In this document: piece by piece, positions 22,101-45,962 of the stretch
How positions within the stretch are numbered: the stretch's first letter is position 1
Layout of the letters: each line of letters opens with the position of its first letter
Assembly: GCF_021869535.1 (NCBI RefSeq)
Contig: NW_026262734.1
Coordinates: forward strand, 39,960,487-40,024,486
Direction: 5' to 3'
DNA: 64,000 nt
Source: Mytilus californianus
Lineage: Eukaryota
Program-made: the position numbers and the translations under genes
The notes under the pieces: model-generated
The model's input: the letters and a program-made list of their open reading frames with translations, nothing else
The model's database searches: none
What the model was told of the DNA's origin: nothing

Positions 22101-23767
22101 TATACATGTAGTAAAATACATCACAGAATTTTACATGCTTGTAGTTTTCCTAAGCTTTCTTTCATACCTCAACATTATCTGTCAAAGCTGTGCACACCTT
22201 CAATGAACAAACTTAGAGTTCATAAAAGTCAAGTTTGGTTTCATATTAATTTATAAGTATAGATTCAGAGGAAAAGATATTGATGTATAATAAATACCGG
22301 TATTGTGGATTTCATTTATTTTTGAGGATACTCAGATTTTTGTGGTTTGAGGAAGCATTGTATTTTAGTGGATATTTGATTTTGTGGTTTTTACAAAGTC
22401 TGCACACAAGTATACAGACCAAATGATGGTGAAATGGTCTTATGATAATAAACATTCAGGAATAATTTATTCATTTAATCAAATTGTTATACATAATTAA
22501 GTATTCAAGGAGAACTTTCAGATTATTATAGGTGGCCAGCATCAGCAGTCCACAAAATACTTCACGGAAAATCAAAGATTAGGAACAGGAACCCCACCAA
22601 ACACCAAAGGGAGAACTAAGATGATCCAGAATGAGAAACAGTTCCAGCTCTACTAATGCCACCTGTCTTGTTACTCATCCCAATTAAATATTTGGTGATA
22701 ATAATTAGTCATATTTGAGATAAGGAAGACTTGAGATGAATTCCAATTTACCATTAAGAACCCTTGGTTAAAAAGCTTCACTTAAAGCAGCAACCATCCA
22801 CCAAGGAAACCCTAGCACTTGGCTATTGTATCAACACCCATAGCCAGGGGGTTTGGATGACCCCTAAAAAATACTATGACAGACTATTCAAGTCAGATAC
22901 AGAAAGAACTTTGAATATTAAAGTCAGTGTCATGACCCAAAATAGCACCCCTAAGTGAATCCCTTACAAGGAGATACTCCAAATGTTTCTACATAAAAAT
23001 GGGAAATTCCCAAAGGAAAAATTGAATTAACTCCATTGTGAAAAAGTTTGGTTCTCAACCGACCCTCCAATATATTATTGATTTTAATAATAAATATATG
23101 ACCCAAAATGCATATTATATATATATCTACTTGATCAGCCTTCAAAGGAAAAAACCTAAACTAAGAAAAAAAATTTAGCATCAATGAGTGTCCCAGTCTA
23201 GATGTGGTCCTTCATTTCTGTATTTTTTTATTTTTGATGCCATTTTTCTCTATTTTTAGCTCACCGGGGCCCGAAGGGCACCATGTGAGCTTATGCCATC
23301 ACTTGGCGTCCGTCGTCGTCCGTCGTCTGTCGTCGTCGTCTGTTGTCGTCTTCTGTCGTCTGTCGTCGTCCGTCGTCGTCGTCTGTCATCGTCTGTCGTC
23401 GTAAACTATTTAAAAAATCTTCTCTGAAACTACTGGGCCAAATACCTTCAAACTTTAATTAAATGTTCCTTAGGGTATCTAGTTTATAAATTGTATCCGA
23501 AGTTTTGATCCATCGACAAACATGGCCGCCATGGCTAAAAATAGAACATAGGGGTCAAATGCAGTTTTTGGCTTATATCTCAAAAACTAAAGCTTTTAGA
23601 GCAAATCTGACAAGGGGTAAAATTGTTCAGTTGGTCAAGATCTATCAGCTCTGACATTTTCAGACGAATCAAACAACCCATTGTTGGGTTGCTGCCACCG
23701 AATTGGTAGTTTTAACAAAATTTTGCAGTTTTTTGTTATTATTTTGAATACTATTATAGATATATAT

Positions 23768-23920
23768 GTAGGACTCCGAACCGCGATGGTCACGCTGATG
23801 TGCGATGGTTTGACGATGAAGTGCATTTTTAATCACGCTGAAGTGCGATAGTGGCATTGTGACGCTATATTGTTGATAGCTACGCCGAAGTGCGATGGTG
23901 GTTACGCTGAAGTGCGATGG
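23768..23920 (+). repeat. Left TIR with subterminal tandem repeats (acgctgaagtgcgatgg x4-5)
   Basis: Direct alignment with the reverse complement of 42866-42977. Confidence 0.8.
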
Positions 23921-24889
23921 ATTACGTAAACTATATTTTCAATATTTTTCATGTTCACATGCAACGGTTATTTACCATAAAAACCAGTGACTAAAAATGT
24001 GATAGCTGTTTAAAATACAATTCCACATTTCCATTCTCAATTTTAATATAATAAGGTCCTAATAAACTTATCACCGTCGGTGGTTTTTATTGCGACTGAA
24101 AAAAAATGGAAAGTTTTTTTTCATATTTAAGATTAAGGTAGAGAAGGACACTGTAGGCCAAAAAAATCTAGCCAATGAACTTTCTTAAATTTCCCATATA
24201 TTGTTCATTGGGGTGTACCTAACAAAATATCAAAATTTGAGAATAGGTTTCCAGGCTATTTTTAGAAATATTCTTTGAAAAAGTTACCTCCCTTTGCAGT
24301 CCTAAAAATGTCATTTTTTTGCCATTTTTAAGCTATAAAGGTACCTGCCAAAAATGGCATATATATTTTTTTTTACTTTTTCTCTTAACAATATGATAAA
24401 TGAATATTTTGAAATATTTTAGACATAATATTTAAAAAAAAAATATATTTTTTTCAAAATGGCTACCCTTTTTTGTAATATGCCTGTTGCCGGCTTGTGT
24501 AAAATTTTGCCAAAAAAATATTTTAAAAGTAAAAAAAAAAAAAATTGTGTCAATGAATTTTTTTTTAAATTGGTATATAAAATACTTTATATCCATGCTA
24601 CAAGTCATAAAAAAATAAAGATATGTTTCCAGGGAAAATAAAAAGTTACGGGGGTAGAATGACACCCTGTCACACTCCCTTTTATGCATATTTCATGAAA
24701 AATATCAAAATTTTTCACTTATTTTTTCAACTCTCTTAACTAAAGGTGGGATTATTTCTTAAATGAGCATTGGTTTTGCAGCATCCATGTCTTTGTAATA
24801 TTATTTTATCCTTTCAATTAACCTTAAAATAAAACGACATTTTTCCTGTACATTTTTCAATACAGACGTTCCTAAAAACAGTCCCGCTG

Positions 24890-25190
24890 CAAATGTTTAC
24901 ACCTGTCCTAAGTCAGGAATCTGATGTACAGTAGTTGTCGTCTGTTTATGTAGTTCATACGTGTTTCTCGTTTCTCGTTTTTATATAGATTAGACCGTTG
25001 GTTTTCCCGTTTGAATGATTTTACACTAGTAATTTTTGGGGCCCTTTATAGCTTGCTGTTCGGTGTGAGCCAATGCTCCGTGTTGAAGGCCGTACCTTGA
25101 CCTATAATGGTTTACTTTTATAAATTGTAACTTGGATGGAGAGTTGTCTCATTGGCACTCATACCACATCTTCCTATATCTATATAGACT
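24890..25190 (+). mobile_element. SINE/MITE-like dispersed repeat (~300 bp) ending ggagagttgtctcattggcactcataccacatcttcctatatct
   Basis: Near-identical copy at 52405-52690. Terminal fragments in either orientation at 100-180, 2215-2260, 5495-5600, 21985-22110, 38860-38925, 40795-40965 and 63395-63440. Confidence 0.6.
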
Positions 25191-27021
25191 AGTGTGATGT
25201 TTGATCTGAATGATTGTTGTGAAAGTCTTGGAAGTGTAAAAATCAACATACTCATTAATCACTGTTCATGATTATAATGATGCAGCAAAAAAGAATATAT
25301 ATATATATGTAAAATAAATTTTATTTTTACGTCATTTTTTTTTATGTAATTACCATCCACATTCATAAATGTAAACAAAACTCAAGAGCAGACATTTTAC
25401 AGACACCAATTGATTTTTATCTAGATGGACCATGTCTCAATGATATAAAACAAACCACTGTAATTATCAAAACATTATGATAATATAACATCAATTTACA
25501 AAAAATATCCAGAATGAGAATGTGGATGACACTTGCAAAAGTGTATATTCTCAAAAACAAAAAAATAAATATGGGGCAGATTCAGTTTCCAAGGGACTCA
25601 CTGAAACGTTTAATTTGTCCAATTTCATGAAAACTACAATCTCTGAAAATATATTTGCGAGTGACTTGATCCAGTTTATACACCAATAAATTCCTTTAAA
25701 AAAGCGTTTAATCATATTATTCTTTAATTTTTTACCAAAAAAAATATTTTTCCACACTCGTAATCATCATCATACGTCAATACATGTAGTATATGTGTGT
25801 CATTGAATTGGCCAGGCGCATGAATTTATTTGTTGGTTAACGCAAAAATATGTACTCGTGTAATTTGTTATCTGATAAAAAAATAAACTACAAAAAGTTT
25901 TATTTTCATTCAAATGAATTTTTTGTGTTTGTATTCAATTTAAAGATTAATGCAAAGTGAAAATAAATAGTTTTAACATTGAGTCGGATTGTGTTACTAT
26001 CGCCTCATTGATTACAAAAAGAAGTTCGGTCAACATCGTCTATTGAAAAATAAACAATTTCAAGAACAACTACCCGAGGTCCTCTCGACCAATTATATCA
26101 AAGTATTCCCTAATATGCAAATCATATAAGAAGTATGATAATATAACATCAATTTACAATACATATCCAGGATGAGAATGTGGATTAAACTTGCAAAAGT
26201 GTATATTCTCAAAAATAAAAAATAAATATGGGGCAGATTCAGTTTCCAAGGGACTCACTGAAACGTTTGTCCAATTTCATGAAAACTGCAATCTCTGAAA
26301 AATATTCCATTAAAACTTTATATAAAACAATAGTCTTGCCCTTAGATCAGATTGCTACAACAAATCTTACAAAAATGTGGAAAAAGGGGTGAGGTAGGGA
26401 AGGGCAAGATGGTAAAACTTTGGAACTGATACATTACAATATTGTTACTTTTATTCAACCTTATGAGTCCCCTCATTTCTGATTTATGGCCTAGCCTAAT
26501 GCTTATTATGTTGGTTCATGTAAATGAATTGAAGTTATCTCCCCTTTATTAATATTAAGTTGACTTGTATTGTGACATAAGCACCTACTTTTGTATAAAA
26601 GTTCATAAAAATCTGTTGAAAAATTTGTCAATCAAAATAAAAATCTGTAAAAGAAATAATCCTTGAGGCTTCAGAAATATTGACTAAATGGAAAATATTT
26701 ATATGTCATGTGATACTTATTGTTGCGTATCTGTCGAGGCAAACTTGGGTTATTGTACAAAATAGGAAACTGTGACAGATGTACAGACAGAGTAATTACT
26801 AAAGGATGCTGCAATTTTATAACAGATCCCTAATTCTTATATATTTGAAGTGTAAGTACTCTTTGGTTACTCAAATTTTAGTAAAAACTTCAATTTATTC
26901 ATAATCAACTTTTAGCAAGGGTTGTTTCAAAGGGTTAGATTTTTAGATAGGCAGAACCAATTTTTCTACTGAATTATAGCATATAAATATCAAATTTTCA
27001 GTCTTTAACCACATATACAGT

Positions 27022-27942
27022 CTATTCCTCTTTTTCAGAAAAAAACTTCTTGAACACATTTGCCGTTTTCCCTTTCAAACCATGTTCCTGCATGATGGAT
27101 TTTACGCCATCTTCATTGTTTCTTTTGTAAGCAAGCTCCAAGTGATGAAGGCTGAGACCTGTGCAGGAAAGTTTCCTTGCAGTGTCTTTTGAAATAACTT
27201 TTTTAACAATGACACTAGAAAAACCCTCTACAATTGACAAATAATTAAACGGAAATAAATCCTTTGCAGAACATGTCTGTTTCAGTTTAAGATGGAACAG
27301 TTTGTATAAACTTCTTACATCCTCCTCAGAATTATGAGCATCATAAACAATCTCCAGAAACTTTTGAACTAATGTTTGTTGCTTATAATTTTGAACATCA
27401 GCTTTTGGTATTTCACGTTTTGCAATTTTCAAAGTGTCAATGCATCCATAAATAAGGTTATCAAAAGAACTCAGCAGATTAAACTCTTGCAACAAATTTC
27501 TTAGTACAGGTACATCATATGAATGGATGTTATGACCAACAAGCACAGGACGAGATTTTTTCTGTATCATTTCAATTAGTTGAAGTAAGGCTTTTCTTAT
27601 ACATACGCTTTCAACTGGAACACCATGGCAATACATTTGGTTTCTCTCAAAAGAGAAAGTAATGCCGGTAACATCACTGGCCTTTGATGAAATAGGTTGT
27701 CGTGGAGACACATAAAGATTTAGCATGTTGGTCCCATCATATGCTGATATTTGTGTTATATCAGAGGTTCTTGATAACCCAGTTGTTTCTAAATCAAACA
27801 CGACATATTCTTCTATGCCTTCCAAAGAATATTTAGTTGGAATCTTTTCAATGTCTCTTACCGACACATTTTCTTCAATTTGTGGTTGATATGTTTCTCC
27901 TTCTATAACTGCTGCTTTAATTTGTTGAAAAGTTTTCTTATG
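27022..27942 (-). CDS. DEDDh 3'-5' exonuclease (DnaQ/TREX-like) main exon: ...VVFDLETTGL (Exo I) ... LVGHNIHSYDVPVL (Exo II) ... YDAHNSEEDV (Exo III), stop at 27022-27024
   Basis: The 306-codon open frame begins directly after a polypyrimidine-AG acceptor at 27943-44. No ATG precedes the Exo I motif, so an upstream start exon is required. Confidence 0.7.
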   Translation of the reverse strand, partial: HKKTFQQIKAAVIEGETYQPQIEENVSVRDIEKIPTKYSLEGIEEYVVFDLETTGLSRTSDITQISAYDGTNMLNLYVSPRQPISSKASDVTGITFSFERNQMYCHGVPVESVCIRKALLQLIEMIQKKSRPVLVGHNIHSYDVPVLRNLLQEFNLLSSFDNLIYGCIDTLKIAKREIPKADVQNYKQQTLVQKFLEIVYDAHNSEEDVRSLYKLFHLKLKQTCSAKDLFPFNYLSIVEGFSSVIVKKVISKDTARKLSCTGLSLHHLELAYKRNNEDGVKSIMQEHGLKGKTANVFKKFFSEKEE

Positions 27943-27989
27943 CTAAAAAAAGACAAAAAGAAAATATTCAGAAAAATCTTTTGTTTATA

Positions 27990-28037
27990 CCTTAATAATT
28001 TGATTTTGGATGTAACGCGTCTTCTGATTGGCTGACA
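27990..28037 (-). CDS. Hypothetical first coding exon of the exonuclease gene (MSANQKTRYIQNQIIK), joined to 27942 by a 47-nt intron (donor AAG|GTATAA)
   Basis: ATG with A at -3 (aaaacaATGt). Phase-0 junction reads ...QIIK|HKKTFQQ. The exon lies inside the arm of the hairpin MITE copy (contains CCAATCAG). Confidence 0.3.
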
Positions 28038-28300
28038 TTGTTTTGTTTATCAGCTCATAGACATAATTTTGTCATGTGACCGTGACGTCATCAACATTTT
28101 TTCATGATTTACTCCGGTTTAAAATGGAATTTAGAACTAAATTATAAGAAATGACTGTAATATTTTTTCTGTCTATTCGAAATAACATAAAAAATGTGGT
28201 GCACACTTTAAAATAAACCACTACGCGAGTTATTCAGTGTGCACCACATTTTTGATGTTATTTCTTCATAGACAGAAAAAATATTACAGTCATTCCTTAA
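28020..28300 (-). mobile_element. Second copy (reverse orientation) of the hairpin MITE seen at 14950-15260. The arm holds TGACGTCA (CRE-like) and GCCAATCAG
   Basis: Reverse-complement similarity to 14950-15260. ~60-bp hairpin at 28130-28290. Confidence 0.6.
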
Positions 28301-30599
28301 TTGTGTTGTTACATGTACATTGTAAAATAAAGGGAATATAACTCTTTATAACCATATTTTTCTTTTGAAATGTCATCATCTTGTTTTCTCTCTATTTTTG
28401 GCCAAATTGCAATTCATATTGTCTTTGGCAATTTATATTATAGTTTACAGATTTAACAATTTAACATAATTCATGTAAGTTTCACCATGTCCCTGTGCTT
28501 ATTAATATGTTGGTCTTCTAGTCCAGTCAAACTAATTGCAACAGAAAATGTTTAAGTTCTAATCTATAGCATTAAGCCCTAAATATACACAGAAAAAAGT
28601 CCCATAAAATCTAACTTGAGGAAAACTCAAAATCAGCATTTTTTAAAATTTCCTATGGAAATTAGCATTGGAAGGGGAGATAACTCCACAAAAATGAGTC
28701 TTCTTTTGTCAGTTTTTGGTTGATTTTTATCAAAATTTATGTAAAGGATGATACTTAGATGGGGTTATAAGTTTATATTTGACTATATTATATAATCTTC
28801 TGCTCATGAAATGTACAAAACCGAAGTGTTATGGGTATTTTTATTTTTTTTGGTGCATTTTTCATTAAAGAAATTGCAAATTTGTTGCTTTGTGACCATT
28901 TTGAAAAAAAATGTGAAAATTTGGTATTGTTTATATCTGTATATTATATTTGTTCAGCATCTACCTTGTTTAAAGAAAATTTAATCAACAAAAAGAAGAA
29001 TGAATGCTGAATTATTTTTATCAAATTTGATATTCTTTACCTTGACATGTTGAAAAATTCAATAAATGGTCAACTAATGAATTATGAAATCTAGATTGTA
29101 GCTTGATAAAAGATATGAAAACACCTTTAGAGTTGTTTGTTATACTCTAAAGACGGCTAAAATATCAAGAATCAATACATTTTGTTGAATAGAAGCGGTA
29201 AAGTTATAATTTTTTATCAATTTTCATTGATATTTCTGCCTTTTTTGCAGACTTATCTCCCTTTTCAATGCAAATCTCCATAGGAATTTTAAATCGTGAT
29301 TTTTTTAGTCTTCCTTTAGTAAGATTTTATGGGACTTTTTTCTGTGTATATTTTGGGTATAATGCTGAAGATAAAAACTTAAAAATCTTCAGTTGCAATT
29401 ACTTTAAGGTTAGGGTCAAATTTATGCTAGATTGACTGGACTATCCTGTATTTTTAAAGTTGTGGTGTAATTATTCTTGAGATAACTTCTCTTATATATG
29501 CCACATCATGCTTTCAATTGTAAGGTAGTTAATATACTAAAATCTAAATAAGACACACACCACCTATTCTTGGCCCTCGTTCCTATCCACATTGAAATTT
29601 TCACTTCAAAACATTTCATGGAAGCGAGATCAATAGACCTGTATTTATACAGGAGGGGGTACTGCACTGGTTAATAGAATTTTGGATACACCTAACAAGG
29701 CACTTCATATCTGAGAAACAGGCTAAATATGCCTCCAATTTTAGAATTCAATCATATATTTCTGTATTATTAAAAATTATCACTAAATTGCAGTGAGATG
29801 AGACTTATATATTTCTTCCTGTTGAGGCTTTAATGTGACTTTGAGATGAAGAACCTCAATAAAAGAGCTGTTCCTTTTCTTTTTGTGTGTTTTTTGTTGT
29901 ACATGTACTGGATACCCCATATCCTTTGTTTTTTCTGTTATATGGCTGTCACTAAATTGACTAATTATATGCCATGAAGTTTTACCTTTCTTTTAAATCT
30001 GTCACGTTTGAAATGAACTGAGGAGCTATTCTTCTTTTGCCAGAGTCTCTTTCTGTCAATCCTCTGTCCAACTCTAACAGTAATTGTGCCTGGTGACAGC
30101 AATGCTTTCTTGTTAACCTAAAACAAGGTAAACTAGTGAGAAATGTTTTAGATGACAAAAATCATAAACCTTCCCTTTAAATTCTATATTCGACCTTTGG
30201 ATAAGGTCACATGAAGGTCAACCACACACTGCTTTATATTCAAACAATTAAAAACCAAATTAACATCATTTATGGTGTGGACAAGTATTGCTGAGAAAAA
30301 GTTGATTAAAAAAATACAATTAAGTCCAATTTGAACTTGATCACCTTTGTAAGGTCATTCACCTTTGTATATAATTTGACAACAAGAGGCTGTCAGAGTG
30401 ACAGCAAACCGGATTTTCCTGCAGAGGTCGAACCCTGAACAGTTGAGCAAGTATGGACACTACATTTAAGCTTAAAACAGCTCTGAATTTGGATTGTGAT
30501 TGAATATTTGACACAGCATAGGTTTGTGACACAAATTGAATGTGGTTTAAGAACTGAAATACTTGAAATTGGACATTTAAATACCTATTATGGTCAAAT

Positions 30600-31350
30600 A
30601 GCAAAAATCTAAGTACATATTAGAATCAGCATATCAAAGAACCCCAAGAATTCAATTTTTGATGAAATCAGACAAAAGTTTAATTTAAGACCCTTTGGAC
30701 CTCAATGTGGACCAACTTGATAAAGGAGCCCACAATCCAAAATCTCTCAATACATGTTAGATTCAGCATTTCAAAGAACCCCATAAATAATTTTTTTGTT
30801 GAATCAAACAAAGTTTAATTTTGGACCCTGATTTGGACCAACTTGAAAACTGGGCCCAAAAATCTAATATTTAAATACAGGTTTAGATTCAGCATTTGAA
30901 AGAACCCTATATATATTTAATTTGTGTTGAAATGAAACACAGGTTAATTTTATCCATAATATTTTCTGTGCAAAGGGAAATAACTCAAACTGGATAAATA
31001 GTTCTCTAAAATAAGATATGATGCAATTTTTCAAATTATAACCAATAATATAATAACAACAACCAGTGATGACTAAGTTCTCTAAAATTAGATATCATTT
31101 ATCACTCAAACATTGCTAGAATCAGCATATCAAAGAACCAAAGAATTCAATTTTTGATGAAATTAATCAAAAGTGTAATTTAGGACCCTTTGGACCTCAA
31201 TGTGGTATTATCTTATTAATAATGAAAAGAAATACAGGTTTAGATTAAGCATTTCAAAGAACCCTATATGTATTCAATTTATGTTGAAATCAAACACAGT
31301 TTAATTTTGGACCCTAATTTGGACCAACTTGAAAACTGGGCCCAAAATCA
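30600..31350. repeat. ~140-bp satellite (unit ...agaaccccaagaattcaatttttgatgaaatcaaacaaagtttaattttggaccctttggacctcaatgtggaccaacttga...)
   Basis: About 5 units. Same family at 48150-48540, 58860-59100 and 60880-61900. Flanking unique segment 30380-30600 is the reverse complement of 61880-62040. Confidence 0.8.
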
Positions 31351-31739
31351 GAAATCTAAATATATGTTTATTAATAGACAATAAAAGCTTAGTTTTTAAA
31401 GGAGTTTACTCCATCAAAAAAAAAATATATATAGCATTCAGAAAATGTTTTTTACAGAATAACAAACAAACTTGCCACAAAATTCTACAAACAATTTACC
31501 AAAGAAAAGAAGAAAAAAATCCAAAATTTTATTTATCATTAATACAATTTCATTTCAAAATCTATAAAACTTATCAGTAACAAGAAATAATTGTAACAGA
31601 ATGCTGTTACGAAGTATCCCAAACAAAGCTCCAATAATTCGTCATTCCCATTGTCCCTTGACATTGGGCAATGTCCAGTACAAATTGGTTTATGATATGC
31701 ATTAGTGACGCCTATGGATTGACCCTGTATGTCATTCAA

Positions 31740-32800
31740 ATCTTCTTGAAATTAAGAACAGGAATTTATTTTTTATGGTTTAGGGGTGGAGATCTCGACC
31801 GTTTACAAGTTCATATATGGTTTAGGGGTAGGGATCTTGACCATTTACAAGTTCTTAAACAGGAGGGGGTGGGGGTGACCCCAGGGGACTCGCCTTATAT
31901 TTCATTTGATTTGTTTTATTGTCCCATTCAAGAATATATATGGTTTAGGGGTGGGGATCTCAACGGTTTACAAGTTCTTAAACAGGATGGGGTGGGGTGA
32001 CCCCAGGGGACTCGCCTTTTATTTCATTAGATTTGTTTTATTGTCCCATTCAAGAATATATATGGTTTCGGGGTGGGGATCTCGACTGTTTACAAGTTAT
32101 CAAAAAGAAGGGGGGTGGGGGTGACCCCCATGGACTTCCCCTATATATCATTTGATTTGTTTTATTGTCCAATTCTAGAATATATATGGTTTAGGGGTAG
32201 GGATCTTGACCATTTACAAGTTCTTAAACAGGAGTGGGTGGGGGTGACCCCAGGGGACTCGCCTTATATTTCATTTGATTTGTTTTATTGTCCCATTCAA
32301 GAATATATATGGTTTCGGGGTGGGGATCTTGACCGTTTACAAGTTTTCAAAAAGAAGGGGGTGGGGGTTTCCGCATGGGGATCTTGACCGTTTACAAGTT
32401 TTCAAAAAGATAGGGGTGAGGGTTACCCCAGGGGATTTCATCTCAATTTCATTTGATTTGTTTTATTGTCCCATTCAAGAATATATATGGTTTAGGGGTG
32501 GGGATCTCGACTATTAACAAGTTATCAAAAAGAAGGGGGGTGGGGGTGACCCCCATGGACTTCAACTATATATCATTTGATTTGTTTTATTTTCCCATTC
32601 AAGAATATATATGGTTTAGGGGTGGGGATCTCGACGGTTTACAAGTTCTTAAACAGGATGGGGTGGGGTGACCCCAGGGGACTCGCCTTTTATTTCATTT
32701 GATTTGTTTTATTGTCCCATACAAGAATATATATGGTTTAGGGGTGGGGATATCAACCGTTTACAAGATAAAAGCACATTCTCAAATTGAAGGGGGGTGG
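31740..32800. repeat. ~185-bp satellite (ggtttaggggtggggatctcgaccgtttacaagttcttaaacagga...ggtgaccccaggggactcgcc...), ~6 units
   Basis: Direct reading. The six-frame ORFs at 31671-32671 are periodic artefacts of this array. Confidence 0.85.
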
Positions 32801-34120
32801 GGGTAAGAATATATATGGTTCAGGGATACTTAATTATCTACAAAATGTCTAATAATGAACAGTAAATTTCAAATTTCATTTATACAGTCCTACTAGTAAA
32901 TTTCAAACTTTATATATACAGTCCTACAGATCTTATCAGGAAACAGAAAATTTTCAAATAAATCTGTCACTCCAATGATATTATATGTTAAGATATAACC
33001 CAGATCTAATTAATAATTAATAATGTAATTAACTTCAAAATGTCTAATAATATAGCTTATCATCATTACCACTTAGGAAATAGATAATTTTCAAATAAAT
33101 CTGTCACTCCAATTTTTATTGTGAGATAAGACATTATGCTTAGTCATAAAAAAGATAACAAGAGTAAAATATTTAAAAATTCCACTTTTGGATATTAAAA
33201 ATGGCTAAAACACAAAGGAGATATACTTATATCTTGAAAATTGAACTAGACCTTCATTAAGTCCCAGGAAACAACATATTTAAATTTGAAAAAAATTTGT
33301 AAAAGCGTTTTCATGTTATTGTGCTGACACTGTTTGGCAGCCGCCCGTAGGCCCGCCCAGCCGCCCGCCATACATCACCATTTTAATAACCAATAATTCC
33401 TTCCAAAATCAGGTTAAAAATCACTGTGTCAGTTTTCAAATTATTGTTTAGAAACCTAAAATGACAGGTCACAAACATTATACTATGTTTATGTTACATG
33501 GGGTAAAATAAAACAGGAAATACACAGTATTTATAATATATAAGCTGTAACACAATACCTTGTTAACCCAGGTATAACCTTCATTCTTCTGAAGAACTGC
33601 AGCTGAAACTCTTGCTTTTAATGAGCTGGTTCCACCATATGATCTACAAAAAGAAATTTCACAGTTAATATTGTAAAGCAGCTGTCAGAAGATTAAACTA
33701 GCTAAAATTATTATAAAACTGTTTCAGGGGGAATAACTGTTCAAACATTTTTGAATTGTTCACTTTTGTTTCATAAGATCTCATATTAGTTTTTAAAATT
33801 TTGAAATTATATCTTTAAAAGTTTTGGAGTTGAATCACAATACCTTTGCCACCTGTCGTCTCCTAGGCCTGCCCCCCTCATATCAAAAATTTAATTTTAT
33901 AAAGTGAAACTTAAATTCATGTTAAACTGTTTGCACTGTTGGTTATTTTTTTGTTAATACAGTGATATCAAAATGAAGGATTGTTTTTTAAGAATATGTT
34001 AATGATCATAGTTTAAAAAAGAATTCTGCTAAGTCAGTTTTCAGAGAAAAAAATTCTGAAATAGTCAATTTTCTAATGACAGATAAACAGCAATCATCTC
34101 CCTTTGAAATTGAAAGAATT

Positions 34121-34394: not shown

Positions 34395-34559
34395 CTGAAA
34401 TGATATCAAAGAAAATAGTTGAAATGTCATACATTATATGAATGTTGATTTATGGCAATGTTTCAAATTGATCTATACTGTACAATTTTATTTACCTGTC
34501 CATTTAGTTAAATAGCTTGCTTGAATATTCCTAAAGAGGACGAACTGTGTTATTCATTT

Positions 34560-35075: not shown

Positions 35076-35498
35076 ATTTTTTAGTCACCCGAAAACTCAT
35101 TTGGTGATAGTAACATCACAGATGGAATAGTCCATTGGCAAGTATTCAAATACAACACAATTATTGTTCAATTCCAGGAAAAAATGTTCTTCAATTAACC
35201 ATTACAAGTCTTTTTATTGTCTGTAAATTATTTTGGTACTAATGATCCTATAATTGTATTTACCTGGAGAAAAACCTTTTGTTTTTGTTTGTTTTATAGA
35301 ATGAGAGGATGTACTTGTTTTATTGTATATTGTTTTTTTTTTCTGCATTTATATGACAAAACTGGTTGTCAGCATTTAAAATAGCAATAACAGCTCCCAA
35401 ACTTAACTTTTGTTCTGGCATATATCACTCGTAATAAAAATTAAAAAAAAACGTTCATATATATGTATAACATCCTTCAAATTTAAAAAAATTCAAAC

Positions 35499-35898
35499 CT
35501 GTATGTTGATGGTTGCTTGGAATATGTGCACCAATCCCCAGAACAGCCTGAATGGTCTCCAAAGAGGTGTGGAACTATACTGTCTAATCTTTCACAAAGT
35601 TCATTCTCCTTTGACTGTTTTGAACTTATAGCATACATATAGCATCTAAGTATGTAAGGAATAACTCCTTTCCCCTTCAGCCCTCTGTACTTATTTGCTG
35701 CTGCATACAGTTGTTTCGACAGATTTTTCTTGACATGGTTCTTGTCGTCTCTTTTTTTAATTTTTTCAAATTTTTGCTTCAGCCTTGATGTTGTTGTAGA
35801 GTCATTATCTGCGTGAATAATGCCAACTGTGCACCCTCTGTCGTCCATCCTTGTAACCATGGATAAAGCCATGTCAGGCTCCATGCCTTTACTTGACC
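35499..35898 (-). CDS. Transposase-like gene exon 4: (G)[48 protein letters not shown]...[23 protein letters not shown]. Holds the DNDxxxTSxLxxxF block. The frame alternatively runs to a stop at 35483
   Basis: Acceptor ttttttgttacag| at 35899-901. 132 open codons in AT-rich DNA. Weak donor AG|GTTTGA at 35498. Confidence 0.45.
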
Positions 35899-36039
35899 CT
35901 GTAACAAAAAAGGACATTGTAATTAATACAATTAATTACGTGAGAACTGTTTTGGATGACTGAAACATATTTCATCTCCCTTCTTATAACTTACACAAGA
36001 GTGCACACACTGAAATGTCTCGCCTTCTTTACTAATCAT

Positions 36040-37330
36040 TGATATTATGTTGATAGTCCTAAATATAAAGCTTTATTACAACTGTCACATAAACTTAACA
36101 TTAACCAAGTAAACTAAACATTGACCAATGAACCATGAAAATGAGGTCAAGGTCAGATGAACCATGCTAGGCAGGCATGTACAGCTAACAGTTCTTCCAT
36201 ACAACAAATATAGTTGACCTATTGCTTATAGTTTAAGAAAAACAGACCAAAACACAAAAACTTAACACTGAGCAATGAACCTTGAAAATGAGGTCAAGGT
36301 CAAATAAAACCTGCGTGACTGCCAAATAGATCATAAAATATTTCCATACACCAAATATAGTTGAACTATTGCATATAGTATTAGAAAAAAAGACCAAAAC
36401 TCAAAAAACTTAACTTTGACCACTGAACCATGAAAATGAGGTCAAGGTCAGATGACACCTGCCCGCTAGACATGTACACCTTACAATCATTCCATACACC
36501 AAATATAGTAGACCTATGGCATACAGTATAAGAAAAACAGACCAAAACACAAAAACTTAACTATAACCACTGAACCATGAAAATGAGGTCAAGGTCAGAT
36601 GACACCTGCCAGTTGGACATGTACACCTTACAGTCCTTCCATACACCGAATATACTAGACCTATTGCTTATAGTATCTGAGATATGGACTTGACCACCAA
36701 AACTTAACCTTGTTCATTGATCCATGAAATGAGGTCGAGGTCAAGTGAAAACTGTCTGACGGGCATGAGGACCTTGCAAGGTACGCACATACCAAATGTA
36801 GTTGAACTATTGCATATAGTATAAGAAAAAAAGACCAAAACTCAAAAACTTAACTTTGACCACTGAACCATGAAAATGAGGTCAAGGTCAGATGACACCT
36901 GCCCGCTAGACATGTACACCTTACAATCATTCCATAATCCAAATATAGTAGACCTATGGCATACAGTATAAGAAAAACAGACCAAAACACAAAAACTTAA
37001 CTATAACCACTGAACCATGAAAATGAGGTCAAGGTCAGATGACACCTGCCAGTTGGACATGTACACCTTACAGTCCTTCCATACACCGAATATACTAGAC
37101 CTATTGCTTATAGTATCTGAGATATGGACTTGACCACCAAAACTTAACCTTGTTCACTGATCCATGAAATGAGGTTGAGGTCAAGTGAAAACTGTCTGAC
37201 GGGCATGAGGAACTTGAAAGGTACGCACATACCAAATATAGTTATCCTATTACTTATAATAAGAGAGAATCTAACATTACAAAAAATCTTAACTTTTTTT
37301 TTTCAAGTAGTCACTGAACCATGAAAATGA
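36040..37330. repeat. ~120-bp satellite, ~11 units (...ccactgaaccatgaaaatgaggtcaaggtcagatgacacctgcc...), with a ~420-bp higher-order duplication (36410-36790 / 36830-37210). Every unit contains AGGTCAAGGTCA
   Basis: Direct reading. Lies in the intron between transposase-like exons 3 and 4. Confidence 0.85.
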
Positions 37331-39352
37331 GGTCAAGGACATTGGACATGTGACTGACGGAAAATTCGTAACATAAGGCATCCATATACAAAGTATGAAG
37401 CATCCAGACCTTCCACCTTCTAAAATATAAAGCTTTTAAGAAGTTAGCTAACGCCGCCGCCGCCGGATCACTATCCCTATGTCGAGCTTTCTGCGACAAA
37501 AGTCGCAGGCTCGACAAAAACTAAATTATTTGACATTGTAGTCTAAGAATAAGGTAATTTAAAGGTCATGGTGGTACACAACACACATACTTGATTTGTA
37601 AGTGCATAGCCATAAGGCGGTGTTATGACTATGCAATCATAAACCAAATATCATTGTCCTTTTTTCAAGGACCAAAACAAAAAGTTATGTTTTTGTAACT
37701 GTAATAATTAAAACTAGACTCATTGAGATGGAAGCCATCTCTGTGGGCCTCGCTGTGAATAATGTGTGGAAATTTGTTTGTATCTTTACCATTATGGTCA
37801 TGTGATTGTCAACAGAACCAAAGTTTTTTTACCTTGACCTTTGACCTAGGAAGTTGTACATACATAAAGACACACCCTCTGGTGTTGGTTAATATACATG
37901 TTAAGTATAAACTTTGAAATCATAATGGTTCTGAAGATATAGAGCAGACACAATCTTCACCATAGGACATGGGTTGTCAACTGAAACCCAAGTATGAAAT
38001 CATAATGATTTTCTAGATATAGAGGGGACACAACTTGTTACAGACGGACAGACTGGTCACTATAGGGCAACCTCCATTCGGAAAGATTGCTATAAAAAAT
38101 TAATTGTTACAAATGTATGTGCTAGCTATAGTTACGACTTGTGATATTCTTATTGTTGCCTGGATGACTAATTTGCATAAACTAAAACAGATTGTGGATA
38201 TGGTGACGTTTTCACAGAAGGCTGGATTAACCTTAAATCTTTGGATTTTGATGGAAAAAAACGTTTTAAAAAAATTGTTGTTTGTGTACCTTGCCAATTA
38301 CTGTTGCATTGATGATTTGGAATTGTTTCCTTTCTTCCCAAATGATGCTGGCATATACTGCAAAGTTTAGTTCTTATATCATAGTCTAGAATTTTCCCTG
38401 TCTTTACACCAACTAGACTGGAATGTCCTGAAATATACGAAGTCCGTGTCCTTTTTAGTCACATAAGAAAAGGTCAAAAGCAGTTTCTGATAATTATATT
38501 CAAAATAGAAAAAAAAGGATAATGTTTGCAAATATAACTTAAAAGGTTTATCTATATGACACAGATGTAAATGTGAGTTTTGCTTAGCTTTTTTTGCTGT
38601 TTAGCCACAAGTTACAAATAAACCTAAAAATTCCAATGTCAGGTATCTGTTCCAATATCACAATCTACCTTATTACCAAATTTCATTGAAATAAAATAGT
38701 AGCTGAGAAATGGACCTTTAATTAGGCCATTAGTTTTCTTGTTTGAATTGTTTTACATTGTCATTTCTGGGCCCTAAATAGCTGACAATGTGGTATGGAC
38801 TTTACTCATTGTTGAAGGCTGTACAGTGACCTATAGTTGTTAATTTCTGTGTCATTTGGTCTCTTGTGGAGAGTTGTCTCATTGGCAATCATTATGAATC
38901 ATACCACATCTTCTTTTTTATACTCAACACATTACTATAGGGTAGAATGGCCTACTTTTTAGTGAACCCCAATGTGCAGTACTACTAGTTATTCATATGG
39001 TATATCTATTGATCAAATATCATTGGTCTACCATGTACAGTAGGTGAGATATGGACTTAAACATAAAAACTTAACTTAAATTGGGAATGGAAGGAAAGGA
39101 CAGATATACAGAGGGACAAGGGTAAACCTAAATGTACCTATGATTTTCATAGTTGGAACCTAAATAGTTATTTTGGACGAGTTTATTAATGTGTAAACCT
39201 GACAGAATTAAAGACTAACATGCATATTTTAATTTTTACATAAAGTCCTTCTGACTTGATTCAGTTTATATGCAATTCAGTAACCTAGTGAGCACACATC
39301 AATAAACTCCTCCACTTTTATTTCTATAATATTACTGATGTTGACATGATAC

Positions 39353-39607
39353 CTGTGTTACTGTTATATTGCCAACCAGAGCCTCTTGTTTGCCAGCCAG
39401 CATCAAAACTGCATTCTAATTCATCACTTGGGGAAATAGCTTTTTCTTCTGTACTAGCAGTTTTACAGGAATCAGATGCCTCATCCATAAGTGACAATGC
39501 TATACATTTCTCCTTCTTTTTCAGTGTCTTGGGATCAGGTGGGGGTATGTTACATGTGCTGAGAAAATTCACAACATGATCAGGACCCATTCCAGAGTGC
39601 ATCATTG
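39353..39607 (-). CDS. Transposase-like gene exon 3: (A)[23 protein letters not shown]...[23 protein letters not shown] (candidate first catalytic Asp, Tc1-like DESKF..GSDG)
   Basis: Acceptor tgatttcag|, donor ACAG|GTATCA. Phase compatible (g+ca=Ala). Confidence 0.5.
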
Positions 39608-40295
39608 CTGAAATCATTATGATTTACTATGATTATCAATTTTTACCACCTACATACTGCATATATATATCTTTATCAATTAAATTAAATACAATTCAAT
39701 AATAGAGCTCAGGTGACAATTGATAAAGCTACAACCTAGTGAGCTCACAAAATTCAATGTCAAAGTTCATTATGACATTTTTAATATTCAAGCAGAAATA
39801 CATAGAAATTATAACTTCCTTACTTAAATCAATTTAAGGCCACCTTTAATAAATTATTGGTTTGCTGTTTACCAACTAGTGTGGGTATAAAGATAAGATT
39901 TTTTTTTCTTTTCTGAATGATGCTTAAAACCCTCTTAATTCAAAATAGTGTTATAAAAAAATAAAATAAAATTTTCATCCCAGGAAATGAGAAAATCTTT
40001 TTCTTAGTTTACTTAGGCAAGTTTTAAATTAGAAAGAACAATATATACATCCCCTGCAGTGATTTGTAATAGCTACGCTGTAAGCCATAGACATATTAGC
40101 AATCCTTGGTGTAAGCAACACTGTAAATAATAAATTACACTACATAGTACACAAATTTGAACACCCCATACCCATGTCATGAGTTTGAAAGAAACTACTT
40201 TAAAAAACATTAAACGTGTCAGAATGATAAATAAAATAGAATTAATAATCTAACTTTCCTACTTTTTTTCTTACAATAAAGCTTTTTGCACATAC

Positions 40296-40414
40296 CAAGA
40301 GCAACTTTTGAGTTGATATCAAATGCTCCTTTTTCATTCCGCTTGCCTGTAGATACCAGTTTCATACCAGAGCATATCTGACATACCACCTCCAAAAGAC
40401 TTCCTAAGCCGTAC
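40296..40414 (-). CDS. Transposase-like gene exon 2: (R)YGLGSLLEVVCQICSGMKLVSTGKRNEKGAFDINSKVAL. Completes the C-x2-C...C-x2-C zinc ribbon
   Basis: Acceptor tttttatcttacag|, donor G|GTATGT. Phase compatible with exon 1. Confidence 0.5.
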
Positions 40415-41094
40415 CTGTAAGATAAAAATTTAATTTTCTGAAAGGTAGCTGATATCATTTTGTTTTATCGTGAGGCCAAACTTAAAATATATGTTGTTTC
40501 CCCTTTTTAGACCCAAATTTTATATAGTGGGTAAGTACTGGGTAGGTACATGTACAAAAATGTACCTGAAGGTTCATGTAGGAAAAATATCTTATCTAAC
40601 ATTTATGAAAGGAAATTTACAAAAATGTCATGAAATTTACATTTTTTATTATTTATCAAGAGACTTGAAAGAAAACAACTACATTTTGTATTTCTATTTA
40701 GAATGTCAAAACAAAACTTTTTGAGTAGGGACATTTTTCTTGTGTAGGTTGCATTATATAAGGGGAAGGGAAAAGAAACAAAATTCTATTTATATAAGAT
40801 GTGGTATGATTTCCAATGAGACAACTCTCTAAACAAATCTCAACAAGAGACCAAATGACACTGAATTTAACAACTATCGGTGAGTCAGGGCCTACAAAAA
40901 TGAGTAAAACCCATATCGCATAGTGAGCTAAAATGTATAATAGGCAAAGAAACAATCGCTGTCCTGTTAGTATTGATTTCCTACAAGGGTTTGGATTGAG
41001 AGAAAAATTGTAAAGATTTCTGCCAGCAGGACATATTTGAAAGTGAATTGCAATCATATTCCTACAAACTTCACATGGTTTTGATAGTTTGTAA

Positions 41095-42015
41095 AAAATG
41101 AAGGGGTGCTAAAAATTGAATGCATGTCGTTTCGTAACCTGGTCGATTCGTAACTACGTTGTTTTGTAACTGAGACGTTTCGTACCTGGTGTAATTATAT
41201 ATGGTTATAAAGTGTTAGTTTAAATCAATTAGTTTAAATGAAACAGTTAAAGTTATTATTTAAAAATGATCAAATTGTTCATCTAATAATAACAATATTG
41301 TAATATTTTTAATTTAAAACTTTCTTAAATCTTTTTAATTATTGGCGAATTGGTAATTAGCTCGTTGACAGCTTTTATGGTTTTATGACAACTAATGACA
41401 GGTAATAAAAAAGTAATTACAGTAGGTGTAAAATGATTAAGTAGATTAATGGCACACGACCTGAAAAAAATAAATATTTTCTCCTTTTTTTCACTTTTAC
41501 ATACAATTGCATAACCCTCCTCCTTTTTCACCAGGGCTGGGGACCGGCGTTGGCAGAGTTAAAGTATTTTTTTTTTTAGAACACTTTATCTTACTCTATT
41601 CTTTTTCTTTCTTTCATATACATCACTTTGTTGTCCTTTGTTTGCATGTTTATACTGGCATAAAGCCTGATTTTTCATCCGAAAAACCCTGGTACAAACA
41701 TGAAACAAAGTCTTAGTTGGCCCAGAGACATATGTGTATATATGTCTCTGATTTCACGGAGTTGCTAATCTCTGTGTATATATGTCTCTGGTTGGCCGGA
41801 GCAGCAGCAGCAGTTGGTCCGTAAACAAAAGCACACCTCCTTTACAATGTACTACATGACATCTGGGTTTGAGTGTATTTATCCCAGAATGAGAAACCTA
41901 CGACTCATATTGTTATTATATATTGATATAAGGTTACAAAACGTCTCAGGTACGAAAGGACATAGTAAGTTACGAATCGACTAGTTACGAAACGACCAGG
42001 TTACGAAACGGCCTG
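41095..42015. mobile_element. ~920-bp MITE in intron 1 of the transposase-like gene. Inverted termini made of repeated CGTTTCGTAAC motifs
   Basis: 41100-41165 is the reverse complement of 41940-42012. Confidence 0.6.
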
Positions 42016-42037
42016 CACCCTAAAAATTATTGTTTAC

Positions 42038-42393
42038 CTCATTTCACCTACTATATCCTTCAGATGGAGTGGGGTGTTGCATCTGTTGCAGAAGAGTTGT
42101 TCCGCTAGCACTTCCAACTCAACAACCCTCCTACCTTCATTCCATAAGATGTTTTTACTGTGTCCGATATCAGTTGAAACAGTAACATTGGAGGCTATGT
42201 TCTCAACTGATACCGGTGTCTCTTGAATCATTGTCGGTTCTAATGGCAATTCTCCCCTCGTACCGTAATCATGGTCTCCCCATTGAGTAAATTTATCTCT
42301 CTCGTTCAAAGTGTTCATCCTTTTAGATTTTTTGAATCTGTCGTTCTTAATAAACCGACCGCGAACACGAAGGCGGTCGCAGTCGTCTGCCAT
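42038..42393 (-). CDS. Transposase-like gene exon 1 (ATG 42393): MADDCDRLRVRGRFIKN...RVVELEVLAEQLFCNRCNTPLHLKDIVGEM(R)
   Basis: ATG lies ~470 bp inside the right TIR and reads inward. Donor AG|GTAAAC at 42037-36. Confidence 0.5.
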
Positions 42394-42865
42394 TTTCTTT
42401 GTTTACCTTGTCTACCTATTGCGTAAAAAAAGAATCGGAACCGATTTTAATTACGCAAAATGCACGTGCTATAATAGGTCATGTGATACCCGTCCGTCTC
42501 TACCTTAATACAAATAAATAAATTTTTAATACCACCGGAAACGGCGAATAATTAGTAGACGGGGGGAAATTAGACTCTGTAGTAGATCCTATTTTTGAAA
42601 TCTACAGGAGTTTTGTTTTTTACGTACGATGGAGCTTGGAATTCTCTAACTACATATGGTTCCGCAGACAGACTCTCCGTATTATGATATTACGGTAAAC
42701 GTGGAACTCATGAGAGCATGAAGCTGAGAATACTTTAAGACATAATTATAGTTATCTCAGATGAGAGGTAGAAAGTAAAGATAAACTGTTAGCGCAGGAT
42801 AATGTTCACATGCAGCAAATTTAAAGAGAACGATTTCTCATTTAGTATGGAACTGTGACAGATGA

Positions 42866-42977
42866 CATATATAGACCATCGCACTTCAGCGAACAGACCA
42901 TCGCACTTCGGCGTAGACCATCGCACTTCAGCGTGACCATCGCACTTCAGCGTCCCCATCGCACCTCCGAGTCCTAC
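42866..42977 (-). repeat. Right TIR with subterminal tandem repeats (ccatcgcacttcagcg x5), terminal CGGAGTCCTAC
   Basis: Reverse complement of the left TIR. Confidence 0.8.
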
Positions 42978-45962
42978 ATATATAAACTGTAAGCAGCAAT
43001 AATGTTCAGCAAAGTAAGATCTACAAAAAAGTTAATATGACCATAATTGTCAATTGACCCCTTAAGGAGTTATTGCCCTTTAAAGCCAATTTTACACAAT
43101 TTGTTCATCAAGTTTGCTAACATTTAAAAATCTTCTCCTCTGAAACTACTGGGCCAATTACCTTCAAACTTTAACTAAATGTTCCTTAGTGTATCTTGTT
43201 TATAAATTGTATCCGAAGTTTTGATCCATTGACAAACATGGCCGCCACGGCTAAAAATAGAACATAAGGGTCAAATGCAGTTTTTGGCTTATATCTCAAA
43301 AACTAAATCTTTTAGAGCAAATGTGACATGGGGTAAATTTGTTTAATTGATCAAGATCTACTGGCCCTGAAATTATCAGACGAATTGAACAACCCATTGT
43401 TGGGTTGCTGCCACCGAATTGGTAGTTTTAACAAAATTTTGCAGTTTTTTGCTATTATTTTGAATATTATTATAGATATATATAAACTGTAAGCAGCAAT
43501 AATGTTCAGCAAAGTAAGATCTACAAAAAAGTTAATGTGACCATACTTGTCAATTGACCCCTTAAGGAGTTATTGCCTTTTAAAGACAATTTTACACAAT
43601 TTGTTCATCAAGTTTGCTAACATTTAAAAATCTTCTCCTCTGAAATGCAGGTGAGCGATTGAGGCTCTTGAGACCCTCTTGTTCATTTTCTTGGCCATTA
43701 TTCTCTATTCTTTTTATTTTGGCCCATTTCTCTTTTTTCTATATTTTTTTTGGGCCCTTTATGTGGTATTTTTTGTCCATCATTCTCTATTCTGTAGACA
43801 GTCTTTCCAAACCCTTATTCATTATTCATGCATGAGCTACTTCTGTGATTCAGGTCATATTTCATTTATCCTCCAATAATTTATTTTATTTTTTTTATTT
43901 TCTATTATGCAACGTACTACTAGTAGACCAAACTGGTCTAAACATGGCAAATATAAAGAACAAATGCAAATTTGTGTAAAATGTTTCAAATTATTGTTCT
44001 TGATTTCACAGTTCACAGTGAAAGATGATCACAATTTTTCTGTTTCTGTATGTCCTAATTTTATTAATGCTATTACCCCTTATGATAAATTATCAAGTGA
44101 TAAAAATATGTTTGAAGTCATTTGAATAAATTTCCAGCATAATTTAATTAAGCTGTGAAAATTATGCATTAAACAAACTAGAGTTTAAGAAAGAGTTTCA
44201 AGAAATCTGCAAGGAATTTGGACAATGTTTGCATCACTTAATATAAGGTATGATGCAAGTAACATAATAGGGTCTAGATAGGGGGTGCTTCATTTCCATG
44301 ATTTCATTATTCTTTTCAGACCATTTTTCTCTATTCTTTATTTATTTTTTCCCCTTATTCTCTATTCTTTAAATTTCAGCACCCCATTATTCTTTAATCT
44401 TTATTTCTTTTTGCCTATTTTTCTCTATTCCTTATATATATTTTCACTTTATTCTGCACTTTTTGCCCATTATTCTCTATTCTGTAAACCCCATCAGCAA
44501 TAAATGCTCCTTGGAGCCTCTTGTTCTAGTAAATTAAGAATACAAAGTTACTATAAGAACCAGTACTAATAAGACAATTAACACTAAGTAAAATGTGATT
44601 TTCTAAACAAAATATTATTAACTAAAGAATTTATTTCAGGATACTGTAATTGTAAGTAAACTATAAATAGAATACATTAATTTACAGATGCATTCATGTG
44701 TAATATGTTTTGGAATATTTTAAGACTTTAATGTCAATATATAGGTCTATAACATTGAAGGCAGATGTTTGTTGCAGTTTGACATTAGATTGTGTTGCAG
44801 TAGTGTGAAAACAAGATGACTTAACTAACAGTAGAAAATTGCAGATTTGTATTAGGATTTCATTGAATATATAGTTATAGTTAAGTACCATTCTTTGCAG
44901 GTATGTATTAATTGTGTCAATGAAAAACAATATATTAAGTATTCTATATAAAATTTTTCCCAATTAGTCAGTATTTATTTCAGTCTTTGATACAAGTTTC
45001 ACAACATTTAACATAATAATCTACACAATAAGTATTATCAAATGTAGCAGGTGTCAAAGCTGTCTATTAAGATGAAAGTTCATTTTATTACATTTTATTG
45101 TTACCATGTATGAGAGTCAGGTCAGGGGTTACAGACCTTCAAAATTTTGTATTCTTTAGTTGTTTTAAATTCCATTTGTCTCTAGTCTTTATTTTTTCGT
45201 CCATTAATTATTTTCTTTTCATTTTATTTTAATTAGCACCCATAATATTCTCTATTGTTTGGTTTGGTTTTTTTTTGCCTATATTTTCTATTCTCTATAT
45301 TCTTTTGCCCTTTATTCTGTATTTTTTGACGATTATATATTTTCTATTGTAAGCCCCATCCAGACCCTCATCATTACTGCTTTATTGGGTTTCTAATTAA
45401 TCACTGTTTCTCAACTTCAAATATATCAGGAAAATTTAATATCAATGTGCCACCATTTTTTTTCTTCAAATTATGAAATGTATCATAGATAGATCATTTA
45501 CACTTAAGATATCTTTAATTCCTCTTTAAGTATTAAGAATTAGCTTCTTTAAGCCCCGAAGATATGAGACGACTATACATCTGATTTACATAGAAGTAAT
45601 AAATAATTATTTTATCTTTTCTCTAAAAAGAGCAATTAGTTTCAATAAAACAGGAATTCATTAAGTGTCATTATATATCTCAAATTTTCCATATTCAGTA
45701 ACACTTTCAGAAGATGTTTCATAGGTATGGATTTGGAATGAAATCTTTAAATTTTCTGTCATCAAATTGATACCTTATCACTGCTTTTGTATGGTAATAT
45801 GAATCACTGCACTAGCTATCTTGTCTTTTTCTGGTTTGATTGCCAAAACTTGAACTTTATGCTGATAAATGATATATATTAACACTTCTATGTAAATTAA
45901 GAAAAAAAAGATTCATACATATAATTTTCATGATTGCAATTAATAACTCATTATTTTTCTCT

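Follow-up and report, generated by a model that had tools for sequence, protein, structure and literature searches.

Does a long block of mussel DNA framed by inverted repeats represent one large transposon, or several that have come to lie within one another? The question is raised by a 64,000-nucleotide stretch of the Mytilus californianus genome (contig NW_026262734.1, positions 39,960,487 to 40,024,486 of the forward strand), hereafter called the window, which consists of AT-rich (~31% GC), soft-masked eukaryotic DNA with a single open reading frame (ORF) of at least 150 amino acids across its 64 kb. In the initial annotation, a part of the window was described as a three-level nest, in which a 19.2-kb terminal inverted repeat (TIR) element with GTAGGACTC ends lies within a ~1.2-kb non-autonomous element ('family A'), itself inserted into a miniature inverted-repeat transposable element (MITE) of the GGGTCTGG type. 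The region is indeed a stack of nested transposons that results from successive insertions, and it comprises at least five levels, rather than three, when the insertions in the introns of the innermost coding element are included. The full account, in which the MITE was entered by a Helentron-type non-autonomous element (HINE), the HINE by a small TIR element, the small element by a DNA transposon of the KolobokD lineage and the introns of the latter by further insertions, has in our estimation a probability of roughly 0.85. The boundaries, target-site duplications (TSDs), empty sites and intact gene that enter into it come directly from the data.

The levels of the nest, up to and including KolobokD, are as follows.

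23186-23257, + strand: level 0, left half of the MITE, with a degenerate terminus GAGTGTCCCAGTCTAGATGTGG followed by ~31-bp T-rich internal units
23258-23767, + strand: level 1, 5' part of the HINE, with a head common to two other copies
23762-23767: left TSD of the small element, ATATAT, 6 bp, from the junction test and the copy in locus L008
23768-24132, + strand: level 2, left arm of the small (838-bp) element, with four subterminal copies of CGCTGAAGTGCGATGG
24133-24136: left TTAA TSD of KolobokD
24137-42504, - strand: level 3, KolobokD DNA transposon, 18,368 bp, the homology to four independent Mytilus copies stopping sharply at both ends
42505-42508: right TTAA TSD of KolobokD
42509-42977, + strand: level 2, right arm of the small element, with five subterminal repeats and the terminus ...TCCGAGTCCTAC
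42978-42983: right TSD of the small element, ATATAT, 6 bp
42984-43683, + strand: level 1, 3' part of the HINE, with the remainder of the ~500-bp central repeats
43684-43815, + strand: level 0, right half of the MITE, its end approximate (degenerate terminus)

A coding element with its own ends inside the inverted repeats

The DNA around five close homologues was compared with the window, namely three loci of M. edulis (L001, L004 and L005), one of M. galloprovincialis (L003) and one on a Mizuhopecten contig (L002). The four Mytilus loci align to the window solely within positions 24137-42504. Each of these copies is bounded as TTAA/GGTAGAGA…TCTCTACC/TTAA, the aligned 5' ends reading TTAA/GGTAGAGACGGAC... 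and the 3' ends ...GTCCTTCTCTACC/TTAA, and the outer flanks are unrelated in every copy. As homology stops at 24137 and 42504 in the paralogues, the coding element measures 18,368 bp, with paralogues of ~13 kb. Its TIRs are 13 bp in length (GGTAGAGA[A/C]GGAC; 24137-24149 and 42492-42504) and its termini are of the form GG..CC. Neither the GTAGGACTC terminus nor the 16-mer CGCTGAAGTGCGATGG was found in the five KolobokD-bearing loci, which argues that the 19.2-kb block is composite and that what had been taken for a single TIR element is, on paralogue comparison, KolobokD (18.4 kb) within an 838-bp non-autonomous element, the coding element having its own TTAA-bounded termini at 24137 and 42504 as it does in four paralogues. 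The inner TTAA-bounded KolobokD came to light only through this comparison. For annotation the lesson is that a transposase gene framed by good inverted repeats need not form a single element with them.

The Kolobok superfamily is defined by a TTAA duplication together with 5'-RR..YY-3' termini (PMC9587614). TTAA flanks the window element left and right and adjoins each terminus of the four independent copies, and the ends GGTAGAGA... and ...TCTCTACC are of the RR..YY type. The KolobokD lineage, which occurs in molluscs, arthropods and cnidarians, encodes a DEDDh exonuclease resembling TREX and Exuperantia (Kojima & Bao 2022, Mob DNA 13:24, PMC9587614). On these sequence characters, and on those of the protein described below, the coding element is classed as KolobokD and not as a Mutator-like element (MULE), despite its Pfam label.

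In L003, the 3' terminal ~700 bp of KolobokD, including the TTAA-flanked end, is tandemly duplicated (17138-19064), with 3' ends at 17825 and 19064 that share an identical outer flank, which suggests that the sequence was either duplicated locally or misassembled. The copy in L002 (2050-13179; Mizuhopecten yessoensis, NEDP02002170.1) is 80-92% identical to the mussel copies at the nucleotide level, introns included, and 86% identical in protein sequence, a closeness that equals that among the Mytilus paralogues. The 5.3 kb of sequence that flanks this copy was compared with 230 kb from Mytilus and shares no repeats with it. The contig is rich in gaps, and its KolobokD ends lie within runs of N. 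The similarity lies far beyond that of vertical descent, making this copy a candidate for horizontal transfer or else contamination.

The KolobokD gene and its product

27022-42393, - strand: KolobokD gene, nine exons, 858-amino acid ORF, GT-AG model colinear with a homologue
42393-42038, 40414-40296, 39607-39353, 38427-38290 and 35898-35499, - strand: exons 1 to 5
34394-34224, 33643-33559, 30117-29986 and 27942-27022, - strand: exons 6 to 9

The nine exons are colinear with an 841-amino acid bivalve homologue (P0005), all introns are of the GT-AG type and no stop codons are present. The product contains a complete PF20700 'Mutator-like transposase' domain at residues 87-413 (2e-89), a DEDDh exonuclease at residues 599-768 (RNase_T, Exu_RNase_H_like) and a PML_C domain at residues 797-844 (5e-11), with the domain matches of the exonuclease region spanning residues 598-844. 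The signature residues D227, D320/D322, D341-x-x-H344 and E466, together with those of a zinc finger at H400/H405/C408/C413, vary little or not at all among 12 homologues. In the CCHC finger that follows the first catalytic D, residues C266, C269 and C284 are nearly invariant, and H282 is present in the window protein (CSICQHH...NHQC). The window protein thereby displays the Kolobok signature (DDE, C/DxxH and a zinc finger placed between C/DxxH and E), and the DEDDh exonuclease by which KolobokD is distinguished is encoded together with the transposase. The Pfam label 'Mutator-like' thus conceals a Kolobok. An aphid homologue (P0101, Uroleucon formosanum) combines PF20700 with a YqaJ/lambda-exonuclease-like domain, the KolobokE architecture according to Kojima & Bao, and supports the view of PF20700 as a Kolobok transposase family.

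Dozens of proteins of 830-840 amino acids with the same fused architecture are encoded in mussels, oysters and scallops, the closest homologues all deriving from Mytilus species. The exons are more conserved than the introns when compared with the paralogues. A segment that takes in the greater part of exon 9 (27310-27992) has 96.6% identity to L005, and the adjoining, mostly non-coding 3' sequence (25137-27314) is 86.7% identical. Such exon conservation would fit a KolobokD lineage kept functional through transposition. With its ends, duplications and gene intact, the window copy is apparently potentially autonomous, and from its sequence we infer that it may be currently active. The exonuclease has been proposed to function in the 3'-end processing of transposition intermediates (PMC9587614), a role that the enzyme encoded here may share. 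For mussel genomics, the locus provides a KolobokD copy with exact ends and an 858-amino acid, nine-exon gene.

The small element with the GTAGGACTC ends

The terminal 12-mers of the 19.2-kb block, GTAGGACTCCGA (23768-23779) and reverse-complemented GTAGGACTCGGA (42966-42977), match at 11 of 12 positions. The 16-mer CGCTGAAGTGCGATGG occurs four times on the + strand at the left end (23793-23920) and five times on the - strand at the right end (42876-42971), in agreement with the four to five subterminal copies initially reported. There is no other site in the 64 kb; the total of nine compares with 0.03 expected and was reached in none of 100 shuffles. The inverted repeats had been called precise, and while their positions were correct, the arms are only 86% complementary over 49 nt and are unequal in length, as additional sequence between its repeat copies makes the left arm longer by ~50 bp. 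Together with one TTAA, the two arms form an 838-bp non-coding element.

When 23768-42983 (the element and 6 bp) is deleted, the flanking HINE sequences rejoin without a gap, as the initial annotation had proposed for the sequences outside 23768-42977, and are identical to the intact unit at 43119-43645 at 495 of 527 positions. Deletions with 0, 2, 4 or 8 bp instead of 6 give a worse score at the rejoined HINE junction. Further copies of the small element were sought by translation of the stop-free frame across the right arm, followed by a protein database search. Three matches, short 'proteins' on ENA contigs, led to copies on the unrelated contigs L006, L007 and L008, all of which have the terminus in common and contain 4-6 subterminal repeats each. 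L008 holds a complete copy of 1,202 bp, which lies between ATATTT and ATATTT and is devoid of Kolobok content. As its flanks are direct rather than inverted, the ambiguity of the palindromic TA run is removed and the duplication is 6 bp; the TSD, which had been left at 2-6 bp, is hence fixed by the junction test and the L008 copy alike. The GTAGGACTC repeats are true transposon ends, as had been maintained, because both termini occur on other copies, and copies that share both termini, the search for which had been put forward as a check, do exist elsewhere. The small element is a genuine mobile family with a 6-bp target duplication.

No matches to the exact pattern of two adjacent subterminal repeats were found in JGI metagenome contigs. 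An rve-type integrase gene (PF00665/PF24764; L006 1630-2820) was considered as a coding partner and rejected, as it is located 300 bp outside the terminus on the flank side and probably belongs to a neighbouring element.

The HINE and the outer MITE

The element that hosts the small TIR element begins with the subterminal inverted repeat (subTIR) AGCTCACC (23258), followed by the complementary inverted repeat GTGAGCT (23285), a (CGT)n microsatellite (23307-23402) and the first segment of the central repeats. Its 3' part has the subTIR CAGGTGAGC (43648), a palindrome and the end CTCTTGTT, with no TSD. Within the central repeats, 42978-43145 and 43478-43645 are 98% identical, and 23418-23717 and 43134-43433 are 92% identical. 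Two more copies are located in the window (2705-3660) and in L001 (17335-19049), with the head TTTTTAGCTCACCTGGCCCGAAGG... followed by (CGT)n. The copies also have the tail CAGGTGAGCGA..AGGCTCTTGAGAGCCTCTAGTT in common, whereas the central tandem repeats differ, with a unit of ~500 bp in the window copy and of 165 bp, repeated ~9 times, in the L001 copy. The palindrome AGGCTCT-TG-AGAGCCT is found in these two reference copies and is degenerate in the window copy. The L001 HINE copy sits within an intron of another KolobokD copy.

The junctions with the MITE read ...ctctattttt/AGCTCACC and ...CTCTTGTT/cattttc, with the MITE colinear across them and no duplication. The element hence combines a 5' subTIR, complementary inverted repeat and microsatellite with central repeats that lead to a 3' subTIR and then a palindrome, at a T-rich site without a TSD. 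This anatomy has been described for Cg_HINE of Crassostrea gigas, pearl/CvE, MgE of Mytilus galloprovincialis and DINE-1 (PMC7492417, PMC4067079). The match to the published anatomy identifies 'family A', which had been annotated as a ~1.2-kb non-autonomous element, as a HINE without target duplication, classed by its anatomy, and suggests a rolling-circle derivative and not a TIR element.

The outermost flanks were correctly recognised as the two halves of a GGGTCTGG-type MITE. Joined, they are colinear with four uninterrupted copies in the window, near 13611, 44271, 51634 and 52040, where the intact copies start with GAGGGTCTGGA and hold ~31-bp T-rich units.

Insertions in the KolobokD introns

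The introns of the window KolobokD comprise ~8 kb beyond those of the paralogues. The following insertions (level 4) were identified.

30379-33416, - strand: 3-kb HINE in intron 7, in reverse orientation, absent from five paralogues
41118-42020: 903-bp TIR element in intron 1, with 36-nt inverted arms
41110-41117 and 42021-42028: 8-bp TSD of the 903-bp element, TAAAAATT
28503-29448: ~946-bp insertion with 104-nt inverted arms, empty site in L003 and L005
27993-28300: ~308-bp insertion in intron 8, with approximate boundaries, empty site in L003 and L004; the duplication may be TAA
35989-37980: ~2-kb block in intron 4, unclassified, with boundaries that are not clean; the paralogues have 130-160 bp here

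The HINE in intron 7 lacks a TSD. Its subTIRs, AACCGGATTTT (~30407) and AAAATCAGGTT (33405), are inverted, GCTGTCA..TGACAGC (30389-30405) forms a palindrome, and the element further contains a microsatellite that is GC-rich and tandem repeats of 123 bp (31813-32767). Two HINE families have been caught entering other transposons, the route by which bivalve satellite-like repeats are thought to spread. The empty site of the 903-bp element, TGAAAATT, is present in both L001 and L003. The block in intron 4 contains a 147-bp satellite array (36111-37243) of ~7 units, on which higher-order periodicities (293 and 440 bp) are superimposed. A related satellite array, 89-94% identical, occurs at an unrelated position in L005 (5908-6991). 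The satellite may belong to another mobile element that carries repeats.

A short dispersed repeat with TGGAGAGTTGTCTCATTGGCAC is found in both orientations in the KolobokD introns (25125-25183, 38829-38911 and 40796-40881), and recurs in the paralogous loci and within the small-element copy of L008 (~1200-1260). It is probably an abundant Mytilus short interspersed nuclear element (SINE) or MITE.

Order of events and alternative explanations

The GGGTCTGG-type MITE with its ~31-bp internal repeats would have been in place first. The 1.2-kb HINE would have entered a T-rich site of the MITE by rolling-circle transposition, leaving no target duplication. A cut-and-paste TIR element, now 838 bp, would next have entered the ATATAT of one HINE central repeat, duplicating 6 bp. 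Its ends are GTAGGACTC[C/G]GA and its four to five subterminal 16-mers were presumably bound by its own transposase. KolobokD would then have integrated at a TTAA within the small element, with its 858-amino acid protein combining the putative functions of a Kolobok DDE transposase, a TREX/Plex9-like DEDDh 3'-5' exonuclease and a PML_C-type tail. At least five more insertions in its introns would finally have increased its size from ~13 kb to 18.4 kb. Because of containment, the MITE precedes the HINE, the HINE precedes the small element and KolobokD precedes its intron insertions. The initial statement that the order can be read directly holds for these contained levels, but not for the small element relative to KolobokD. 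The modes of transposition would follow from the families to which the elements belong.

It may also be envisaged that KolobokD entered the small element elsewhere, and that the small element's transposase subsequently carried the resulting 19.2-kb composite into the HINE. Intact GTAGGACTC ends and a 6-bp duplication flank the whole block and the sequence gives no relative dating of both events, which leaves room for such a course. It is nevertheless improbable, as cut-and-paste elements of this size seldom transpose, the sole complete relative found is 1.2 kb in length and lacks Kolobok content, and none of the five KolobokD loci is bounded by GTAGGACTC ends. The last observation also tells against a single autonomous 19.2-kb TIR transposon, in which the inner Mutator-like transposase would recognise the GTAGGACTC ends and the 16-mers. 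A coding gene does sit between the inverted repeats, its Pfam domain is named 'Mutator-like' and subterminal repeats are a typical form of transposase binding site. However, four paralogues end 365 bp and 473 bp inside the GTAGGACTC repeats, at their own TIRs with TTAA, and no paralogue has GTAGGACTC ends. Furthermore, a duplication of 6 bp is unfit for both Kolobok (TTAA) and MULEs (8-11 bp), and gene-free copies of the GTAGGACTC element exist, so that a single element is very improbable indeed.

Mussel genomes are repeat-rich and difficult to assemble, and the inverted segments might thus be ascribed to a collapsed or chimeric inverted duplication. The arms are, however, short (100-150 bp), imperfect and unequal, with a 6-bp direct duplication outside them; they recur on three independent contigs of other assemblies, and all junctions can be accounted for, either through a canonical target duplication or through an empty site. 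An assembly artefact is therefore scarcely credible.

Several points weigh against the account of successive insertions that is preferred here. The internal sequence of the small element is unlike that of L006, L007 and L008, only the terminal ~110-150 bp being in common, and no intact copy of the window's own small-element subfamily was found among the copies recovered. The putative state of the small element prior to KolobokD is reconstructed solely from the TTAA and the termini. No coding partner was found for the small element, all four copies being non-coding. KolobokD would have entered the small element after the latter had reached the HINE, though the reverse order may also apply. The proposed placement within KolobokD is drawn from architecture and signature residues and not from a phylogeny with Repbase references. 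Lastly, the MITE termini at the locus are degenerate, and the flanks of the four uninterrupted copies are inconsistent, with TTAA, 6 bp or 3 bp possible as the duplication.

Relation of the exonuclease to Plex9 and PML

The side observation with the most potential concerns the exonuclease. Its sequence (27022-27942, - strand; residues ~552-858) matches 9MRC/9MRD, which are structures of zebrafish Plex9.1, at 6e-34; the catalytic motifs align and the identity is ~44% over 174 amino acids, whereas TREX1, TREX2 and Exuperantia reach 1e-5 to 1e-2 at best. The best vertebrate matches are fish plex9.1/'TREX4' proteins. The PML_C-like tail alone gave no matches as a query against the PDB. The exonuclease(-like) domain of PML-I/Plex9 in jawed vertebrates has been described as a retroelement restriction factor. 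A link to transposons is unmentioned in the PML/Plex9 literature searched, and a link to Plex9/PML is likewise missing from the KolobokD paper (PMC9587614). The KolobokD exonuclease, with its PML_C-type tail as in vertebrate PML-I, appears to be the nearest relative among invertebrates of fish Plex9/'TREX4'. It is conceivable, though on balance doubtful, that the PML-I/Plex9 domain of jawed vertebrates was domesticated from a KolobokD-type transposon. Capture of a host gene by the transposon is the alternative.

Comparison with known transposons

Every component of the nest falls in a known class with the exception of the small TIR element, and the current understanding of these classes is unaltered by the locus. 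The nest is ordinary for a bivalve genome, yet neatly resolvable. The HINE shares with Cg_HINE, pearl and MgE a 5' subTIR with a nearby complementary inverted repeat and a GTC-type microsatellite, central repeats that vary between copies with common flanks, and a 3' subTIR followed by a palindrome at a T-rich site without duplication. The likeness to Cg_HINE and MgE is judged on anatomy and not on consensus sequence identity.

The small element represents a new, unclassified TIR family with a 6-bp TSD and defined termini. Target duplications of 6 bp are typical of Polinton/Maverick, IS3EU and Dada in the Repbase scheme, and with these the small element has the duplication length (ATATAT, ATATTT) and the presence of TIRs in common. 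Its multiple subterminal direct repeats resemble the ends of hAT, P, CACTA and MULE-type elements, which differ from it in duplication length (8 bp, 7-8 bp, 3 bp and 8-11 bp, respectively).

Among the relatives considered for the coding element, Mutator/MULE transposons, after which Pfam names the domain, likewise encode a DDE transposase of the hAT/P/MuDR/Kolobok group, with the C/DxxH motif in common, and were rejected on the basis of the 4-bp TTAA instead of 8-11 bp, the 13-bp instead of long TIRs, and the Kolobok-specific zinc fingers. The piggyBac elements share the TTAA target duplication and were rejected on the basis of GG..CC instead of CCC..GGG termini and a PF20700 transposase instead of the piggyBac DDE domain. 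With the KolobokD lineage (PMC9587614), the element shares TTAA, GG..CC (RR..YY) termini, short TIRs and a mollusc host, a DDE transposase with DxxH and two zinc fingers, one ahead of the last E and an additional CCHC finger behind the first D, and a DEDDh (DnaQ-type) exonuclease downstream of the transposase. The window copy differs from this lineage in its very large size (18.4 kb), with ~8 kb of later insertions in its eight introns, and in the fusion of the exonuclease into one 858-amino acid ORF with a PML_C-type C-terminal module.

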